From NCBI GenBank assembly GCA_964363945.1, contig CAYIKF010000003.1, positions 5,693-38,869 of the forward strand: a stretch of DNA of 33,177 bases. The letters run 5' to 3'. The DNA comes from an uncultured Gammaproteobacteria bacterium (lineage in GTDB: Bacteria > Patescibacteriota > Microgenomatia > UBA8517 > JACQJR01). Below the pieces are notes generated by a model, which saw nothing but the letters and a program-made list of their open reading frames with translations, made no database searches and was not told the origin of the DNA. The translations under genes were made by a program, and so were the position numbers. Shown one piece after another: positions 7,199-21,811 of this stretch. How positions within the stretch are numbered: position 1 is the first letter of the stretch; each line of letters begins with the position of its first letter.

Positions 7199-8365
7199 TT
7201 ACACTGAATTATATACACGAAGTGTTTCTTTCGCCATATTTTGCCATGAGAATTGTTGGGCTCTTTTCTCGCCCTTTTCCACCATTCTTCGATGTTTCGA
7301 GTCATCAAGGCGCAATACTTCACCTATTTTTTGAGCAATATCACCAACATTGTAAGGATTAAAGTATGTTGCGGCATCACCGTAAATTTCATGGAAGACC
7401 GGAATATCAGAACATACCACGGGGCACCCTGCTGCCATTGCTTCAAGGCCAGGCAAACCGAATCCTTCAGATAAAGATGGAAAAACAAATGCTTTCGCGT
7501 TTTTATAAAGCAGTGCTAACTCATCATCAGGAACGAATCCTAAAAAGTTCACAAAAGAATCAGCTTTGATTTTGTTAACATATTGTATTAATCGGGCAGT
7601 GAAAACATTCCGTGCACTCACGATAACTAAATTGATATGCAATTGTTTTACTGCACTAATAAGTCTTTCTAAATTTTTATGCGGATACGCACTTCCTGTA
7701 TAGATAACGTAAAGTTTATTTATTAATGAATATTTATTAAGGATTTTCTGTGATTGGTGATTGCCGCCCTTGGCGAGCCTCGCCTTCGGCGGGGTGATTG
7801 GTGATTTGAAAGAATCGTCGATTCCTTCATAAATAACCGTCACCCTCTCTTCATCTAATCCATACTCTTTCAGCAACTCCTCCTTCACTGCTTGACTTGG
7901 AACAATGATCTTTCTAGCCTTGTGTACTGCATTGCTAAATACCATCTTATATCCTGTATACTTTAGCCAATAAAGAAACGGCGCACGTGTTGTGGTTGCG
8001 GATCCCCGGGAAGTATGTTTTATTAAATCATGAATTGTGACAACAAATGGGCGCTTAAAAAAAAATGGTACATTAAAGTGAGGGAAATGGGCCAAGTCGA
8101 AATCTAAATTATTCAAAATCTGAGGAAGTCTAATTTGTTCTTGAAAACTGTAATGAGGACAATCTGGTTTGATAATTTCCATTTTCCATTTTCCATTTTC
8201 CATTGATTTTCCAATTTCTAATTTTTCAATTTGTGAATTATTAACCAAAACCACATGCTCATTCGCTGTATCTACAAGTTTCAGTTGACCAACCAAGTTC
8301 ATCACGTATCTGCCAATACCTGCATGTTCTAGTCCATACATTCGTGCATCAATAAGTATCTTCAT
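7199..8365 (-). CDS. GT4-family glycosyltransferase (start moved to Met25 of the track ORF)
   Basis: Canonical GT4 N-terminus MKILIDARMYGLEHAGIGRY begins at 8365, which avoids overlap with the upstream gene ending at 8380. C-terminal block FPSLSEGFGLPGLEAMAAGCPVVCSD ... FSWQNMAKETLRVY. Confidence 0.85.
   Translation of the reverse strand: MKILIDARMYGLEHAGIGRYVMNLVGQLKLVDTANEHVVLVNNSQIEKLEIGKSMENGKWKMEIIKPDCPHYSFQEQIRLPQILNNLDFDLAHFPHFNVPFFFKRPFVVTIHDLIKHTSRGSATTTRAPFLYWLKYTGYKMVFSNAVHKARKIIVPSQAVKEELLKEYGLDEERVTVIYEGIDDSFKSPITPPKARLAKGGNHQSQKILNKYSLINKLYVIYTGSAYPHKNLERLISAVKQLHINLVIVSARNVFTARLIQYVNKIKADSFVNFLGFVPDDELALLYKNAKAFVFPSLSEGFGLPGLEAMAAGCPVVCSDIPVFHEIYGDAATYFNPYNVGDIAQKIGEVLRLDDSKHRRMVEKGEKRAQQFSWQNMAKETLRVYNSV
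7750..7807. repeat. copy 1 of a dispersed GC-rich hairpin element nested between GTGATTG heptamers (putative miniature mobile element), inside a GT4 ORF
   Basis: 7757..7806 is 48/50 identical to 17702..17751. The core 7764..7792 is CCGCC-CTT-GGCGAG-C-CTCGCC-TTC-GGCGG, a two-stem hairpin. Flanking GTGATTG GTGATTG lies at 7750-7763 and GTGATTG GTGATTT at 7794-7807. Confidence 0.9.
8176..8204. repeat. perfect tandem heptamer array TTTCCAT x4 inside a GT4 ORF
   Basis: Read directly. CC dinucleotides recur at 8179, 8186, 8193 and 8200. Degenerate CCAATTT / CTAATTT units follow. The array encodes MENGKWKME. Confidence 0.92.
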
Positions 8366-8379
8366 AATATCGCCTGTGT

Positions 8380-9291
8380 TTACCAAAAAAACTGTCTGTA
8401 CTTCTCTAAAACCCAAATTCCCATCCCCACTAGCCATAGGATTGGTGTTGGATAACGTCCCACATAATGTTTCTTATAAAAAATCCTCATTGCTTCAATA
8501 GACGCGCGTGTTGCCATCTTTCGTATCTCTTTTGTCGCCACAGATACTTCCTTTGTATGTTTTTTAATTCCTGAGGATACTCCTCTATAGTGCAAAATAG
8601 ATACAGTTGGAACATACATTATTTTCCAACCCGCTTTTTTTAACCTGAAACAGAAGTCAATATCTTCCCCATACCAAAAATAATCTTCATCCCACCAACC
8701 TACCTTTTCTCCGGCTTCACGACGAACTATCATAAATGCTCCGCTAAGTGCGTCTATTTCGTGGGTTGTGATTCTTGGAAGATAACCCATTGTGTATCCA
8801 GAGAATAAACGTAATTTTGGGAACAGTCGCTCAAGCCCAAAGAAGTGGCAAAAAGCATTCCAGGGAGTGGGGAAACCGCGATGTGCCGCTTCATCCAGTC
8901 CACCATCGGGGGATTTTAATTTACAAGTTGCAGCCCCAACCTGTGGATGTTTATCCATAAAGCGAGTCATAAAACTGAGGGTATTTGGATTTACAATTGT
9001 ATCCGGGTTCAAAAAAAGAATATACCGACCTTTTACATAAGGCACTGCAACATTATTTCCCTTGGAAAATCCAAAATTTTCTTTGTTTTCAATAACTTGA
9101 TACTTGATACTTGACACATGATACTTCTGAAGTGCTTCCACGCTTCCATCGGACGAGGCATTATCAACTACAAATATATCCCATATATATCCATTTTTCT
9201 TTGAATTTTCGATTGATTGAATACACTGAGTAACAAAATTTTTTGCGTTATAATTGAGAATCACAATTGAAAGATCTGGATGTGTTTTCAT
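8380..9291 (-). CDS. GT2-family (GT-A fold) glycosyltransferase
   Basis: 303-aa ORF. LSIVILNYNAKNF ... VVDNASSDGSVEAL ... NFGFSKGNN ... LFLNPDT (DxD-type) ... GAFMIVRRE ... FWYGEDIDFCFRLKKAGWKI. ATGA overlap with the upstream GT4 at 9288-9291. Confidence 0.88.
   Translation of the reverse strand: MKTHPDLSIVILNYNAKNFVTQCIQSIENSKKNGYIWDIFVVDNASSDGSVEALQKYHVSSIKYQVIENKENFGFSKGNNVAVPYVKGRYILFLNPDTIVNPNTLSFMTRFMDKHPQVGAATCKLKSPDGGLDEAAHRGFPTPWNAFCHFFGLERLFPKLRLFSGYTMGYLPRITTHEIDALSGAFMIVRREAGEKVGWWDEDYFWYGEDIDFCFRLKKAGWKIMYVPTVSILHYRGVSSGIKKHTKEVSVATKEIRKMATRASIEAMRIFYKKHYVGRYPTPILWLVGMGIWVLEKYRQFFW
9095..9129. repeat. tandem heptamer array ACTTGAT ACTTGAT ACTTGAC ACATGAT ACTTCTG inside a GT2 ORF
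   Basis: Read directly. It encodes KYHVSSIKYQV in the loop between the DGS..EAL helix and the VIEN strand. Confidence 0.85.
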
Positions 9292-11953: not shown

Positions 11954-13295
11954 GGCTTTCCCTCTTCATACGTGTATTAATAATTCCTACAGATATTCCC
12001 AGAAGTGTCCAAAATATAAGTGCCACCTTTGAGGCCTCAAATACATCAATAAATGCTGCATTCGCAAGCAATCCCACTGCTGCCCCTACTGTTCCCACAA
12101 CCAACACATCAGAGGAGGCAAGAGTGCCCCCGTTTGGCCGAAACTCCTGTAGGAATCCCCACATTTTCTGTCCAATCCTCATCAATACAAGAAAAAACGC
12201 CAGTGTACCCACCACTCCCACTTCCCCTAACATGCGAAGGTAATCATTATCTGTTGCAAGGGTGATAGAGGAAAATCCGGTCCCCAGCAGAGGATTCTTA
12301 GAGAACGCGCGCAGCGCCCTCGGCCATTCAACATTCAGACGAATTGCAGTTGAGCGGTCTTCGAAAGCTGGTGGTCGAGGAGCGGGAGGAGGAGACAAAC
12401 CTTCTTCTTGTGCCCAAGCAATTTTTGTTACCTCAACTCTCCCAAATAGCTGCTGTAGGGTAAATTTATACTTACCAGCCAAATCCGAACTAATTACAAA
12501 CGCGATACTTATTGCCATCATAAACACCAAAAAGGCTCGTTTCTTAAGGAACCAAAGCGTTACCACGAGTCCTACAAAGTACGCTGCGACGGAAATCCGA
12601 GAGGCAGCAGTCACGAGCAGCCACAAAAGACAGAGAGTAACGCCAAAGATAAGCGCTCTCCCTACAATATTCCTCAACGCAAAAAGATAGGCTATCCCTA
12701 TCGGAAGGGCAAGCACCAAAAATGCTGCCAAATCATAGTGACCCCCGAACGTCGAATGAAGCCGCGCTCCCGGCAACCATCGCAGTGCCAATCCTTTCGA
12801 AAATTCCGCATTTTGGGTTGAAATTACCGGAAAGCCAAAATGGATTTGTCCCAAGCCATACAAAAACACAAGAAACGCGGCGACCAGAAGCACCTCAATA
12901 AAGAAATATGCATGCTTTTCACTTCGCGCGAAGCTGTATGCAAGAAAGAAAGGAACAACGTATTCAATCCTTCTTACCCAATGAAGTAATCCTATATGCG
13001 GTACAACAGTGTGGGTTAAAAGGATACCGGAGGCAATTGACACCAACCCTGCTGCAAGGAACAGTAAGAATGCGCGGGTAATGCTGCTTTGAAAAAAAGG
13101 GCGATGATTTTGTACTAATTTTAACAAAAGAAATATCCCCAGAGCCGCGAGTAGAATATCTTCCATTCTCACTGCAACATACGTTCCCGGTATATTAAAA
13201 AGAGGAAACTTAGGATATAAAGGTATAGCAAGTAAAATTACCGCCAGACCCCATTTAAAAATAAAATTCTCAAATTCTACCAAGCGCGTGAACAT
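11937..13295 (-). CDS. O-antigen ligase / Wzy-type polymerase family membrane protein
   Basis: Polytopic ORF with a large Pro-rich extracytoplasmic loop (EEGLSPPPAPRPPAFEDRS) and a Wzy_C-like core (HSTFGGHYDLAAFLVLALP ... TAASRISVAAYFVG). The track ORF extends to 13346. Met18 (13295) is preferred because it shortens the overlap with the upstream gene. The exact start is uncertain. Confidence 0.68.
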   Translation of the reverse strand: MFTRLVEFENFIFKWGLAVILLAIPLYPKFPLFNIPGTYVAVRMEDILLAALGIFLLLKLVQNHRPFFQSSITRAFLLFLAAGLVSIASGILLTHTVVPHIGLLHWVRRIEYVVPFFLAYSFARSEKHAYFFIEVLLVAAFLVFLYGLGQIHFGFPVISTQNAEFSKGLALRWLPGARLHSTFGGHYDLAAFLVLALPIGIAYLFALRNIVGRALIFGVTLCLLWLLVTAASRISVAAYFVGLVVTLWFLKKRAFLVFMMAISIAFVISSDLAGKYKFTLQQLFGRVEVTKIAWAQEEGLSPPPAPRPPAFEDRSTAIRLNVEWPRALRAFSKNPLLGTGFSSITLATDNDYLRMLGEVGVVGTLAFFLVLMRIGQKMWGFLQEFRPNGGTLASSDVLVVGTVGAAVGLLANAAFIDVFEASKVALIFWTLLGISVGIINTRMKRESREENY

Positions 13296-14187
13296 AAATC
13301 CTACTCCTTGGTGTAATGATACCAAAAATAAACATGCGAAGGACACTTCCTATAAAAAGTAAAAGGCGCAAAAACGCAAAGGCCATTTTTGAATAATGTT
13401 TTTTGTAAAGAAGTTTGAGGCCCTCGAATTCACGAAGAACCGTTCCCTCTCTTGTTCCACTTGCTCCCCCGAAGTGGATTATTTTCGTTTTTGGAACATA
13501 CCACACCTCCCACCCCTTGGCTTTAGTCCGCATACAATATTCAACCTCCTCTACATAGAGAAAGAAGCTCTCATCAAACAAACCAATCTCGCGAACTACC
13601 TCTCGCCGAATTAAAAAAAATGCTCCTGTTACCCAATCAAGCGGCCGTTCTTTTGAATAAGCAGAGCTTGACTTCGTATAAAAAGACCTATGGGGATGGT
13701 ACGAGCCAAAAAAATCGCCTACAAATGGTACGTCATCAATGAGTGTTGCCCACAAGAACACTCGCGGTAAGGTCGGGGAAAATCCGCCTGTTGGTTGGAG
13801 CGTGCCATCGGCATTTACTAATTTACAACTGGCAATGCCAACCTTTGGATGCTCATCCATCCACATCACCATACTAAGTAAAGAATTCTCAATTAATTTT
13901 GTATCCGAATTAAGAAGTAGAATATAACGTCCCTTTGCCTTCTTCATCCCCTGATTATTCGCCGCCCCAAATCCCTTGTTATCTTTATTTGTTATAACCT
14001 GTAACCTGTAACCTGTAACTTTCAATTTGCGTAATGCTTCAACTGTTCCATCTGTTGAATTATTATCAATCACAATAATTTCATAGGTTATGTCCTTCGT
14101 ATACTTCTTCACTGACTCTATACACTTCAAAAGAAGTTCTTTTGTGTTATACGACACTATAATTATCGAAAGATCAACTATTTCCAT
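13270..14187 (-). CDS. GT2-family glycosyltransferase (paralog of 8380..9291)
   Basis: LSIIIVSYNTKELL ... VIDNNSTDGTVEAL ... NKGFGAANN ... LLLNSDT ... GAFFLIRREV ... FLYVEEVEYCMRTKAKGWEV. It is collinear with 8380..9291. The track start 14217 is possible, and Met11 (14187) gives a smaller overlap. Confidence 0.85.
   Translation of the reverse strand: MEIVDLSIIIVSYNTKELLLKCIESVKKYTKDITYEIIVIDNNSTDGTVEALRKLKVTGYRLQVITNKDNKGFGAANNQGMKKAKGRYILLLNSDTKLIENSLLSMVMWMDEHPKVGIASCKLVNADGTLQPTGGFSPTLPRVFLWATLIDDVPFVGDFFGSYHPHRSFYTKSSSAYSKERPLDWVTGAFFLIRREVVREIGLFDESFFLYVEEVEYCMRTKAKGWEVWYVPKTKIIHFGGASGTREGTVLREFEGLKLLYKKHYSKMAFAFLRLLLFIGSVLRMFIFGIITPRSRIYVHALGRI
13995..14019. repeat. perfect tandem heptamer array AACCTGT x3.6 inside the paralogous GT2 ORF
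   Basis: Read directly. It encodes KVTGYRLQV at codons collinear with the array at 9095..9129. Confidence 0.92.
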
Positions 14188-14746
14188 TTGTTCTAAAAAT
14201 AGTTTTGTACCATTCACGTATCACGAGAAGTAACAAACCAAGGGACAAAATTGCAAGTGAAACCCTTACATACGAATTGCTTCTGTAATACCGAACGGTA
14301 ATCTTTTGTTGAAATTCTCGCCCTTCGATTATGATTTCATCTTTTGGCTCTTTCGCAACAAAACCGTTGACAAAAAACGACTCCCTAAAGGGGTGAACGA
14401 TTTCCTCCAGAAAAACACTTCGGGTCAATTCTTTAATAAATATGGCTGCATCTTCTGGGGGATAATTAAGCCTGTAAGTTGGGATAGTAATGTTAAAACC
14501 TCTCCAACTTATAGTGCTCAACTCCTCCTCATGATATGCAAGAACTTCCTCACGCGATAAATCAGTAAAATAAGCTCGTCGGTTTTTATAATCCTCGGTA
14601 TCTCCCCGCTCGGTAGACTCCAAAGAGTCGGGCGGATTGCTCGGGAAAGGAGGCGTAGGAAGTATAAGATAAAAAAGAAAAATTCCTGAAAAAAAAGTAT
14701 AAGCGATAACAAATAAGGTCAAAAGTAAAAATTTGATAACTTTCAT
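14174..14746 (-). CDS. hypothetical bitopic membrane protein (N- and C-terminal TM segments, extracytoplasmic middle)
   Basis: The ORF was trimmed to Met38 (MKVIKFLLLTLFVIAYTFF) because the upstream acetyltransferase gene ends at 14751. I recognise no family. Confidence 0.5.
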   Translation of the reverse strand: MKVIKFLLLTLFVIAYTFFSGIFLFYLILPTPPFPSNPPDSLESTERGDTEDYKNRRAYFTDLSREEVLAYHEEELSTISWRGFNITIPTYRLNYPPEDAAIFIKELTRSVFLEEIVHPFRESFFVNGFVAKEPKDEIIIEGREFQQKITVRYYRSNSYVRVSLAILSLGLLLLVIREWYKTIFRTNGNS

Positions 14747-18427: not shown

Positions 18428-19519
18428 TTACACTACACTCCGATATACTTCTAATGTTTCCCTTGCTGCTTTCTCCCATGAGAACTGTTTTACTCGAGCC
18501 AATCCTTTCTTAATGAATTCTCCCCTTTTGGAAAGCACGCGTTCAATCCCTCTTCTTATATCATCAACATCCTCCGGGTTTACCAAAACTGCCGCGTCCC
18601 CTGCTACCTCGGGCATACTTGAGATGTTAGACGTTACTACCGGACATCCGCACGCCATTGCTTCTAAAATTGGCAAACCAAACCCTTCGTATAGGGAAGC
18701 GTAAATAAGCGCTTGTGCACCACTATAAAGTGCGGAGAGTTCGCTTCTTGAAACATGACCAATCCACAAAATATTGTCCCGCGGAGCGGGATCCTGCTTC
18801 GCGGGATGCGACCACCTTTTTCCCACAACAACCAATGGCGGTGCATCGGGAATGAGTGTAAGTGCTTGAGCTACATTTAATAGATTTTTTCGCGGATCTG
18901 CTCCTACTGCAAGCAGGAAATGCCGTGGAAGACCAAATTTCTTTTTTACCTCCCCTACCCTCTTATCCCCTACTTTTCTATAAATTGCATCCGGCGCCTC
19001 ATACACTACTGAAATTTTTTCCGCCGGAATTCCCAAATAAGTTATGATGTCATTTTTGGTAGCTTCCGATACTGCTATCACCCGTTCACATTCTCTCTTT
19101 ACCCACTTAAGCTGTCTTTTGTGTACTGCAATAATCTTAGGATGTGAACTCTCTGGGTATAAAAGCGGCACTAAATCATGCACTGTAGTAACCAGTTTTG
19201 CTTTTCTTGATGGTGGTTGTGTCCAATTAGAAGAATGGAACACATCAACCGAACCCACAAAATTTTCAATTGGAAAGATGTGAAGCCGATTCCATAAAAG
19301 GTCAAGCATCATTGGAGATAAAGGATAAAACTTTTTTGTGAAATTACCTGAAAGGTCCTTGCTAAAATGATTTAAATCAGGCAAACGGCGCATGGCACCA
19401 CCGAAGAGGAAATACTCATCTTTTTTATCAAACGAGAGGAGTGCGTGTACCAAATTCCTTGTATACCACGAAACGCCAGTCTCATAAACTATTTGCGAAA
19501 TATCTATTCCAATCTTCAT
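18428..19519 (-). CDS. GT4-family glycosyltransferase
   Basis: 363-aa ORF. MKIGIDISQIVYETGVSWYTRNL N-terminus, block ASLYEGFGLPILEAMACGCPVVTSNISSMPEV, and tail FSWEKAARETLEVY. Confidence 0.85.
   Translation of the reverse strand: MKIGIDISQIVYETGVSWYTRNLVHALLSFDKKDEYFLFGGAMRRLPDLNHFSKDLSGNFTKKFYPLSPMMLDLLWNRLHIFPIENFVGSVDVFHSSNWTQPPSRKAKLVTTVHDLVPLLYPESSHPKIIAVHKRQLKWVKRECERVIAVSEATKNDIITYLGIPAEKISVVYEAPDAIYRKVGDKRVGEVKKKFGLPRHFLLAVGADPRKNLLNVAQALTLIPDAPPLVVVGKRWSHPAKQDPAPRDNILWIGHVSRSELSALYSGAQALIYASLYEGFGLPILEAMACGCPVVTSNISSMPEVAGDAAVLVNPEDVDDIRRGIERVLSKRGEFIKKGLARVKQFSWEKAARETLEVYRSVV
18777..18806. repeat. 30-nt GC-rich near-perfect palindrome embedded in-frame in a GT4 ORF
   Basis: TCCCGCGGAGCGGGATCCTGCTTCGCGGGA. 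The outer 7-bp stem is TCCCGCG/CGCGGGA. The inner arms pair with two G-U positions around a GATC loop. It encodes PAKQDPAPRD. Confidence 0.85.
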
Positions 19520-20972
19520 CTTGAGTTAATTGTACGCCTCGCTCGTATTCGAACACAAACCCCACTCCTCGGAAGTTATATGTTGCTACCTTAACAAAAC
19601 CCTTCTCGTCTAATGTCTTTTCAACTACCCCCTCAGGATCATTTATCTCGACCAAATATTGAAAAACAAAAATTTGCTCTCTCTCTTTTATAATTTGGTC
19701 AAGTCCAGGATTCAAACCCCCTACACCATCAACAATCCCTTTTGAATACCAAGAAAAACCAGGCATCACACTTTTGCTCTCAAAAAGAACAAGAACGCCA
19801 GGAGTTGCTTTTTGTTCAATAAAGGATACTGCCCCTCTCCAATCTTCTCTCTGAAAGCGTGAATTGAAAAGATAGATACCACTTGAAACTATATTAACCA
19901 AAAGTAACCCAACCACCATTATCAACCTCACTTTACTGTTTTTAAATGAAAGCGCGCCAAATGCCGCGAGTAAATAAAATGGGGGTAATAAGAAAATGAG
20001 CCGAAAATAGGAAAATACTGAAACTTTGAGTCCCACCAGAGCCACTGCGAGAATAGGTAATGTAAACCATACCCATAAAAAACTAGTCCGCTGCCACAGA
20101 GTAACACTTTTGAGGAAAACGCTCGCAAAAAGCACAGTTGGAATAACAAGCAACGCGGCATAAAGCACACTATTTTCTGCCGATATTCTCCCAATCATAA
20201 ATTTAATAGGTACTAAAGCAAGCTCTTTTACGTTCGTTCCGCCCAGCACATTCCACCATTGGGGGTTAGTCATTTGTACACCCAAGCCTGCCGCAAGTTG
20301 CCCAAATAATATCGGAACCCAAGGTAAAAAAAGGAAAAGAATGGCTATGGTAGCTAACAACCAGTTGGTAACACTCTTTTTAAGATGTTTTCTTTCGAAC
20401 ACGAGTAAATACAAAGCGAAAAATAGAAAAAGAAAAACGGGGAGATAATCGGTATAGAGAAGAAGTGTACTTACAATTACTAATCCCACCCAATCCGACG
20501 CTTGCTGTTTTTTCGCTTTGATAATTTTCAAGAAAAACAAAACTGAAAGGGTTGTAAAAAACACTGCCGGAACATACATTCGTGCTTCTTGAGAATAGTA
20601 AATGTGTAAACCTGAAGTTGCCAAAAAAAGAGCTGCAACTTCAGGAAATTTCCAATTTCCAATTTCCAATTTCCAATTAATTTGTTCAATTAAAATTTTC
20701 CCAATTAAGAAAACTACCCAAATTGTAGCAACACCAAACAAAACTGAAAGCATACGTATAGCGACCTCCGATGTACCAAAAACTTGTATAAAGAAGTGGA
20801 GTATCAAGTAGTAAAGTGGTGGGTGAAAGTCACCAGGAGAGAATTGTGCTAAAATTTCGGCAACAGAAAAGTCGCGTGCCACTAACGCGCTTGTCGCCTC
20901 ATCATGCCAAAAAGATTGGTTAAGGGAAATCAGTCTAAGTAAAAACCCAAGTATAAGAATTACGAAAATCAC
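19482..20972 (-). CDS. polytopic GT-C membrane glycosyltransferase (PMT_2 / ArnT-like)
   Basis: 496-aa multi-TM ORF. The N-terminus LLRLISLNQSFWHDEATSALVARDF ... FHPPLYYLILHFF is typical of the PMT_2/ArnT family. The GTG start forms a GTGA overlap with the upstream GT2 gene (20969-20972). Confidence 0.78.
   Translation of the reverse strand: MIFVILILGFLLRLISLNQSFWHDEATSALVARDFSVAEILAQFSPGDFHPPLYYLILHFFIQVFGTSEVAIRMLSVLFGVATIWVVFLIGKILIEQINWKLEIGNWKFPEVAALFLATSGLHIYYSQEARMYVPAVFFTTLSVLFFLKIIKAKKQQASDWVGLVIVSTLLLYTDYLPVFLFLFFALYLLVFERKHLKKSVTNWLLATIAILFLFLPWVPILFGQLAAGLGVQMTNPQWWNVLGGTNVKELALVPIKFMIGRISAENSVLYAALLVIPTVLFASVFLKSVTLWQRTSFLWVWFTLPILAVALVGLKVSVFSYFRLIFLLPPFYLLAAFGALSFKNSKVRLIMVVGLLLVNIVSSGIYLFNSRFQREDWRGAVSFIEQKATPGVLVLFESKSVMPGFSWYSKGIVDGVGGLNPGLDQIIKEREQIFVFQYLVEINDPEGVVEKTLDEKGFVKVATYNFRGVGFVFEYERGVQLTQDEDWNRYFANSL
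20647..20678. repeat. perfect tandem heptamer array AATTTCC x4.5 inside a GT-C ORF
   Basis: Read directly. CC recurs at 20652, 20659, 20666 and 20673. It encodes NWKLEIGNWKF in a loop between TM segments. Confidence 0.92.
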
Positions 20973-21811
20973 TTTGCTCCTCTACCTGTCATCCGATATT
21001 CTAAAATTCCTATAAAAATTCCAAAATCATAAACAATCTTAAAGATGAGAAAATGCGGCGTTTTATTAAGGATAGATTTTACCAGTCCTACTACTAGTGA
21101 TACCGGTAAAGACGCGCGAAATAGTGCAAAAGTTGCTCCGAGGATTCCCAATTTATACTCTCTTTTAGCAACCCAATGCGCGTGGTTAAAAACTTCAGAA
21201 AGATTACTGGGATTTGCATGATAAAACTTAGCATCAGGGGCAGCTACTGCTTCATATCCAAGTTTCTGACTTAAACTCCAATCATCCGTATAATACCCAC
21301 CAAGTTCAAATCCTCCTACCTTATCAAACTCACTTTTTAAAAGTGCTCTGAAAACCTTCTGTGTGGGTGGGTAGTTTTTAGGATGGCGCTTTCTCTCCTC
21401 CCAACCCTCATTTATATTCCAACACAGCGCCCACACATTTTCCCAGTTTGAGACATATTCCTCACGACTCCACGTGCCGCTTGCGTTCCCTCTTATTATT
21501 GGTGCAACCAACTTCTCTATAAAGTCCCTCTCAAACGTCATATCCGCATCAACAAAAACGAGTATTTCTCCTTTTGCATGGGTTGCTCCCAAATTCCTCG
21601 CCTCACCTGGTCCCTTATGTTTCTGTTCAAAAATTCTTAAATCGTACTTCTTAAATCTTAAATCTCCGACAATACTAAGGGTATTGTCGATCGAGCCATC
21701 ATCTACAACAATTACCTCTATTTTTTTGTAAGTTTGTTCGCACAAAGATTCCAAACACTTGTTAATTGTTTCCTCTTCGTTATAAGTAGGAATAATAACT
21801 GTGACTTTCAT
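20969..21811 (-). CDS. GT2-family glycosyltransferase with hydrophobic C-terminal segments (possible polyprenyl-phosphate sugar synthase, GtrB/CsbB/Ppm-like)
   Basis: 280-aa ORF. VTVIIPTYNEEETI ... VVDDGSIDNT ... VFVDADMTF, followed by C-terminal hydrophobic stretches (LGILGATFALFRASLPVSLVVGLV, FLIFKIVYDFGIFIGIL). It is translationally coupled to the downstream GT-C gene. The lipid-carrier role is inference. Confidence 0.8.
   Translation of the reverse strand: MKVTVIIPTYNEEETINKCLESLCEQTYKKIEVIVVDDGSIDNTLSIVGDLRFKKYDLRIFEQKHKGPGEARNLGATHAKGEILVFVDADMTFERDFIEKLVAPIIRGNASGTWSREEYVSNWENVWALCWNINEGWEERKRHPKNYPPTQKVFRALLKSEFDKVGGFELGGYYTDDWSLSQKLGYEAVAAPDAKFYHANPSNLSEVFNHAHWVAKREYKLGILGATFALFRASLPVSLVVGLVKSILNKTPHFLIFKIVYDFGIFIGILEYRMTGRGAK
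21636..21665. repeat. tandem heptamer array CTTAAAT CGTACTT CTTAAAT CTTAAAT inside a GT2 ORF
   Basis: Read directly. It encodes DLRFKKYDLRI, again in the loop following the DDGS.DNT motif. Confidence 0.8.

Follow-up and report, generated by a model that had tools for sequence, protein, structure and literature searches.

Short tandem repeats within a reading frame can be read in several ways, and a heptanucleotide tract in a glycosyltransferase gene raises the question of whether it switches the gene off and on, has grown in place by slippage, is kept for a role of its own, or has reached the gene as a copy of something found elsewhere. Such a tract is located in the window, by which we mean the whole stretch of 33,177 nucleotides that has been analyzed here (C3:5693-38869 of a 0.65-Mb, 66-contig genome). 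Its homologs assign the genome to the Microgenomates (CPR) of Hainich groundwater. Its host gene, P0001, is part of a surface-glycan gene cluster with GT4, GT2, PMT_2, Wzy_C and NTP_transferase genes as neighbours, and the synteny of this cluster is kept in the ortholog L083. The gene and the tract are given by the following features:

8380..9291, minus strand: GT2-family glycosyltransferase gene P0001, 303 aa (Pfam PF00535, E 5e-25).
9095..9126, minus strand: 32-nt heptamer block, coding strand AAGTATC ATGTGTC AAGTATC AAGTATC AAGT (from TRF, translation and family membership).
9113..9119, minus strand: variant unit ATGTGTC (plus strand GACACAT), present in block copies of other genomes.

On the plus strand, positions 9095-9129 read ACTTGAT ACTTGAT ACTTGAC ACATGAT ACTTCTG, which an earlier note had described as an array of five units, two of them perfect and three decayed. 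TRF on the window has returned a period of 7 for 9095-9126, with 4.6 copies, 84% matches and a score of 50. The array as such is thus upheld, but the supposed fifth unit, ACTTCTG, agrees with the repeat unit at 4/7 bases only and is better read as flank, so that two perfect and two imperfect units are counted. A formal tandem-repeat score against a composition-matched null had been set beforehand as the refuting test. With five Markov-1 (dinucleotide-frequency-preserving) shuffles of the whole 646-kb genome as the null, TRF has found 52 period-7 arrays with a score of at least 50 in the genome and 0 in the shuffles, and the array in the GT2 gene is accordingly real. The excess persists at scores of at least 30 (177 period-7 rows versus 12.6 in the shuffles) and for perfect period-7 runs of at least three units (24 observed, 0 expected), and among periods 4 to 15 none other than 7 is enriched. 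Merging of the TRF rows has given 124 period-7 arrays in the genome, which are not predominantly intergenic, as 95 of them are found inside ORFs of at least 60 aa, in both orientations. The perfect runs show a mode at 29-37 nt, with the longest not exceeding 37 nt. Among the first 20 array-bearing genes 11 are glycan-related, and the others include trmD, rpsB, topA, dprA, a PBP2 transpeptidase gene, def, fmt and femAB. The array class sits in essential single-copy genes, and its tracts are not confined to dispensable surface genes.

Within P0001, the array corresponds to codons 56-66 of 303 and is read in frame in the ORF 8380-9291 as KYHVSSIKYQV, the peptide that had been predicted for it. 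It is situated in the 5' fifth of the gene and its unit is not divisible by 3, two properties that would suit a contingency locus, in which a slipped-strand change by +/-1 unit turns the surface-glycan GT2 gene off or on. The location within a surface-glycan cluster and the occurrence of such tracts in several GT paralogs point in the same direction, and a precedent for a coding heptanucleotide switch is available in neuO, the phase-variable capsule O-acetyltransferase of E. coli K1, which contains 3-53 units of a coding AAGACTC repeat; 65.6% of genomes carry it in the OFF state, and subpopulations with +/-1 unit can be measured (PMC13001214). The resemblance to neuO concerns the heptanucleotide tandem repeat, placed in the 5' part of the coding sequence for a surface-glycan-modifying enzyme, and further the translation of the array in all three frames in turn, by which the frame holds only for certain unit numbers. 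Unlike neuO, whose unit number varies between and within strains, the present array has 4.6 units and does not vary among three assemblies obtained from replicate samples of a single well, the two others being the ENA contigs L081 and L082 with 100% and 99.96% identity. Neither a unit-number polymorphism nor a frameshifted allele, for both of which a check had been suggested, has been detected among these three assemblies. Moreover, while about two thirds of neuO genomes are OFF, no OFF allele and no frameshift across the site has been seen in any of 161 orthologs, and none of the 124 arrays of the genome lies at a split gene, i.e., where two long ORF halves meet in different frames. The dependence of the reading frame on the unit number is therefore correct as arithmetic, but has no counterpart in an allele of the orthologs, assemblies or genomic arrays compared. 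A switch is also disfavoured by the small number of units (two perfect and two imperfect), by the presence of the same array class in single-copy essential genes, and by a block size that is fixed across copies. At the assembly level there is no sign of phase variation at the array, and we regard a contingency locus as distinctly improbable.

The sequence of the array is not private to this gene. A search of 401 Microgenomates genomes for the 21-nt core AAGTATYATGTRTCAAGTATY has retrieved 16 places in 15 genomes, while the reversed-pattern control has retrieved 0. These places share the imperfect block pattern AAGTATY-ATGTRTC-AAGTATY and are distributed over RecX (between HTH2 and HTH3), MurD, a methyltransferase, a GT4, a Wzy_C protein, other GT2 genes, an unnamed membrane protein and non-coding DNA, the coding copies being translated in three reading frames (KYHVSSIK, LSIMYQVL and SIMCQVS). 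When the copies are stacked on the core, conservation extends over ~32 nt (GTATT AAGTATY ATGTATC AAGTATT AAGTAT) and then gives way to unrelated flanks, and this discrete block size is kept by 19 family copies. The sub-form of the window with ATGTGTC (AAGTATC-ATGTGTC-AAGTATY) is also present in L192, L195 and L201, and the form with ATGTATC at 12 more places. A common, identical block of ~32 nt (AAGTATT AAGTATT ATGTATC AAGTATT AAG), almost identical to that of the window, is carried by the GT2 genes L016, L174 and L053, which are only 55-85% identical in DNA elsewhere and are not each other's nearest relatives. Perfect AAGTATY arrays of three units have been found in 19 of 151 genomes. In three loci (L187, L197 and L199) the AAGTATY block is followed 10-40 nt downstream by a reverse-complement array (AATACTT...), and such inverted pairs could form long hairpins.

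This distribution bears directly on the imperfect units, which had been interpreted as an array decaying at one end by point substitutions. That interpretation does not hold, since the ATGTGTC unit occurs in the block at unrelated loci of other genomes as well; a variant unit common to such copies has been inherited with the block and not acquired locally. ATGTRTC is thus a hallmark of the family instead of a product of local decay. Avoidance of stop codons in AAGTATT arrays could account for part of the enrichment of the ATGT variant. In nine of the 16 variant copies, however, the preceding unit is AAGTATC, so that no stop codon is lost by the A-to-T change, and several copies are non-coding; stop avoidance therefore cannot explain the shared variant.

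The same observations weigh against a local origin, according to which a native heptamer has been duplicated in place by strand slippage and is now point-mutating, and any likeness elsewhere is convergence. Several features speak for it: at its 3' end the array runs into native codons (KYQV, compared with KFQL or KFKI in relatives), common units are similar to the native codons 'EFP' and 'IEN', compared with the orthologs the block is length-neutral, and two relatives that are 79% identical, L174 and L156, differ by exactly 21 nt (three units), which is a slippage-type change. Convergence would nevertheless have to produce a variant unit with the same two substitutions in 15 genomes, at loci that are unrelated, in other frames and in non-coding DNA, and to make a 32-nt block identical in three GT2 lineages with flanks of 55-85% identity; in addition, slippage is expected to yield geometric lengths, whereas the blocks are of discrete size, with no array above 37 nt. 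A local origin is therefore judged unlikely. We consider it rather probable, with some reserve, that the array is a tolerated in-frame passenger, namely one copy of a dispersed family of ~32-nt (4.6-unit) heptamer blocks of the AAGTATY type with ATGTRTC.

The position that the block occupies in the protein is compatible with such tolerance. In an AlphaFold2 model of P0001 (pLDDT 91.7), helix alpha2 comprises residues 50-56, a loop residues 57-63 and strand beta3 residues 64-68, and the array is accordingly predicted to encode the helix end, the loop and the first part of the strand, at the alpha2-beta3 loop of the GT-A fold. From general GT-A topology this loop should face away from the catalytic side. 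Almost every internal indel of the orthologous family falls within the alpha2-beta3 region, and the loop is the principal indel-tolerant site of the GT2 family. Arrays recur at this site in paralogs, two of which are encoded in the window:

13995..14019, minus strand: array GTTACAG x3.6 (= AACCTGT) in paralog P0002 (gene 13270-14217), encoding VTGYRLQVI (from TRF and alignment).
21635..21665, minus strand: array AGATTTA x4.4, encoding GDLRFKKYDLR in the same alpha2-beta3 columns; its gene (20969-21811) is a very distant GT2-like paralog.

P0001 and P0002 are 37% identical, and their arrays fall into the same alignment columns without a gap, which confirms the array at 13995-14019 as the positional counterpart that it had been taken for. 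Three further GT2-like paralogs of the genome, 18-30% identical, have an array in these columns too, and four different units are found at the loop of five GT2 paralogs (AAGTATC, GTTACAG, GATTTAA twice, and AATTTCC). The proposal that the arrays of P0001 and P0002 represent different turnover states has to be abandoned, because their units are unrelated and belong to different dispersed unit families, and the two arrays are consequently not two states of one ancestral array. Common descent of both arrays has been rejected on the same ground, together with the low identity of the two proteins and the occurrence of both units elsewhere; the GTTACAG unit of P0002, for instance, is present in another gene of the genome at C48:586-615.

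Orthologs have revealed the same preference. The 81 loci taken from GTDB species genomes contain 13 period-7 segments, every one of them 15-128 nt upstream of the conserved N.GF motif, and in 80 metagenome loci all 29 arrays likewise precede the motif, at distances of 14-136 nt. The remaining ~650 nt downstream of the motif are free of arrays in the 161 orthologs, whose 42 heptamer arrays are all placed at the alpha2-beta3 loop or the neighbouring loop. Orthologs lacking an array are the majority among the 80 metagenome loci. The array-free form, with 18 codons between the anchors (AEMVKKEFPxVKLIxNKK), represents the baseline of the wider family, and array-bearing forms mostly have 21 or 23 codons there. 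Tolerance, targeting or a combination of the two would account for this hot spot, and the data do not separate them, since the site is the only strongly indel-variable internal region of the family.

A second paralog-wide hot spot, similar to that of the GT2 genes, has been noticed in four GT-C (PMT_2-type) paralogs, in which GGAAATT or AATTGAA arrays occur at the same relative position (residues 99-124, or ~0.2 of the protein):

C1 6486-8159: GT-C paralog with array.
C1 8178-9881: GT-C paralog with array.
C1 13244-14944: GT-C paralog with array.
Window 19482-20972: GT-C paralog with array.

How the GT2 site changes with time has been followed on a tree of 164 family members, built after removal of the array site. 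Arrays are present in 35 sequences with about 23 different units, and their distribution on the tree demands at least 22 gains or losses, compared with 30-33 for shuffled labels. The nearest relatives of P0001 all differ at the site: L001 (81% identical) lacks an array, in L084 a GC-rich insert is nested in an AATTTTC array, L085 contains a GC-rich insert, and L002 has a weak AAAGTGC array. The syntenic L083 also has no array, and its DNA at the site is unrelated although it spans the same 21 codons. In length, the window exceeds L001 by 3 nt and differs from L083 by 0 nt. The anchors are separated by 20-21 codons in syntenic orthologs that lack the block, compared with 21 in P0001, and these lengths are not those expected from a simple 32-33 nt insertion. 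A descent of the array from the sequence of the ortholog P0012 has been rejected as well, the DNA at the site being equal in length but unrelated. Among the relatives compared, no fresh filled/empty pair differing by the block length has been found, and a metagenome scan for near-identical strains has given nothing above 59% identity.

Such turnover is difficult to combine with a functional motif, i.e., a block retained for a DNA, RNA or protein role such as a binding site, a landing pad for hairpins or a useful loop. Arguments in its favour are the perfect conservation of the block sequence across diverged GT2 genes, the recurrence of the position in five paralogs and the nesting of hairpin inserts in arrays. 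The last has been observed at the alpha2-beta3 site of the orthologs P0004, P0087 and L009, and in P0087 a perfect four-unit GCTCAAA array is restored when the 24-nt GC-rich insert is taken out. A shared role is contradicted by the complete difference of the units between relatives, by copies in any frame and either orientation, by the array-free majority of orthologs, and by the copy in the window itself, for which no hairpin structure is predicted (fold z-score of 0.25) and no inverted partner exists within +/-250 nt. We hold this explanation to be very improbable.

Under the passenger account that we prefer, the genomes of Microgenomates (CPR) would be populated by discrete heptanucleotide blocks representing selfish or mutational DNA, of which selection would leave those copies that have come to lie in harmless loops and stop-free frames. 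A block would arrive or be rewritten as a unit, either by copy-paste or by template-directed replacement of a pre-existing array that was about equally long, and would afterwards undergo only occasional slippage in frame-preserving steps of three units (21 nt). Small GC-rich hairpin inserts may in addition use such arrays as landing pads. From the length data together with the 21-nt difference between L174 and L156, we infer that an older array of similar length has been replaced and that three-unit slippage has followed; the same-length replacement is deduced in this way and not directly observed. The 32-nt block is not a multiple of three, and its true boundaries are uncertain. It is conceivable, if rather doubtful, that CPR heptamer arrays are in general ~32-nt cassettes that are written or exchanged at pre-existing array sites, by a length-neutral cassette replacement within genes. 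If so, few known mobile or templated DNA units would be as small, and the cassettes would constitute a continuous source of loop variation in glycosyltransferases and essential enzymes alike.

Two candidates for the enzyme have been examined. A reverse transcriptase as the writer is rejected, as the genome has no RVT_1. One Y1 HUH transposase-like gene is present (C11:18289 to the contig end), but no link of a Y1 transposase to the arrays has emerged, as none of 16 occurrences of the Y1-flanking hairpins of relatives, in 10 loci, is nested in a heptamer array. In the relatives, proteins of ~230 aa resembling Y1 transposases (HUH, IS200/RAYT-like) are encoded in 1-8 copies in 18 of 30 genomes of 0.6-1.1 Mb each. 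Seven of the eight copies examined (L216-L223) are flanked on both sides by a GC-rich hairpin of ~20 nt, which corresponds to a REP/RAYT-like arrangement, and the Y1 gene L219 is followed by long heptamer arrays. One of these hairpins, GACAAGGTCCGTCCTTGTC, recurs at 33 dispersed places in the relative G002 and at 17 in G085.

Heptanucleotide repeats of bacteria, among them the STRR of heterocystous cyanobacteria, have been known since about 1990. According to Mrazek (2007), as far as that work is related in PMC4679880 and PMC4692102, heptanucleotide long SSRs (LSSR) are the most over-represented class of prokaryotic SSRs, and polymerase slippage has been proposed for them. For TAACTGA repeats, sets of 2-6 copies have been described from Beggiatoaceae, cyanobacteria and Bacteroidetes (MacGregor 2015, PMC4679880); they are thought to have spread horizontally by an unknown mechanism, and a few copies in ORFs are read through as LSVISYQ (PMC4679880). 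The arrays described here agree with the TAACTGA, LSSR and STRR repeats in the 7-nt unit, in the 2-6 copies per set, in the enrichment of period 7 alone, and in the recurrence of the unit at many unrelated loci and in distant lineages with no known mechanism; as for TAACTGA, copies within ORFs are read through in the stop-free orientation. The TAACTGA unit itself is represented in the CPR genome analyzed here, where a perfect ATCAGTT array of 5.1 units at C19:4424-4459, outside the window, encodes NQLSVISYQLSVS within an ORF, again in the stop-free orientation. In contrast to these repeats, which are overwhelmingly intergenic, about three quarters of the present arrays are intragenic, essential genes included. 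They further differ by the discrete ~32-nt block with its conserved internal variant unit, and by their recurrence at one loop in paralogs and orthologs. A literature search has found no paper on such arrays in CPR bacteria.

Another relevant comparison is that with the palindromic elements of Rickettsia (RPE), in-frame selfish inserts that are palindromic or hairpin-forming. The small dispersed repeats (SDR) of Nostoc, which are associated with the work of Elhai et al. of 2008, are reportedly hairpins that nest in heptamer arrays. With both the present family shares near-identical short copies in unrelated conserved protein genes, where they supply extra surface residues in tolerant loops, and with SDR also the hairpins nested in heptamer arrays, as seen at the alpha2-beta3 site of orthologs. 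Unlike RPE and SDR, the block of the window is a tandem repeat that is neither palindromic nor predicted to form a hairpin, and no clean filled/empty pair has been seen, L174 and L156 differing by 21 nt and not by 32-33 nt. The array is a previously undescribed form of a known and still unexplained kind of heptanucleotide repeat.

The value of the locus lies in the internal marker unit, by which the block shows identity by descent across unrelated genes and genera, and in a GT2 family whose 161 sampled orthologs document repeated gain, loss and replacement at one loop; both make it a sharp handle on the origin and spread of heptanucleotide repeats. In practical terms, tracts in CPR glycosyltransferases should not be annotated as phase-variation switches, and a sizeable share of the loop-length variation in these tiny genomes stems from repeat DNA and not from selection at the protein level.

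A difference between assemblies of the sampled population has been noted outside the GT2 gene:

Window 7750-7807: GC-rich hairpin within a CAATCAC heptamer array.

The window has CCGCCGAAGGCGAGGCTCGCCAAGGGCGG at this point, and L082 (ERZ1292626), a second assembly of the same population with 99.96% identical flanks whose contig ends there, has CGCCCGCATCGCCTAAGCTCAGCTTTGGCGGGCGTGG. Either the hairpin has turned over within one population, or the discrepancy is an artefact of assembly where the contig ends. Together with a SNP at window position 8009, C in the coding strand of the window and T in L082, it is the only difference between the two over 4.5 kb.
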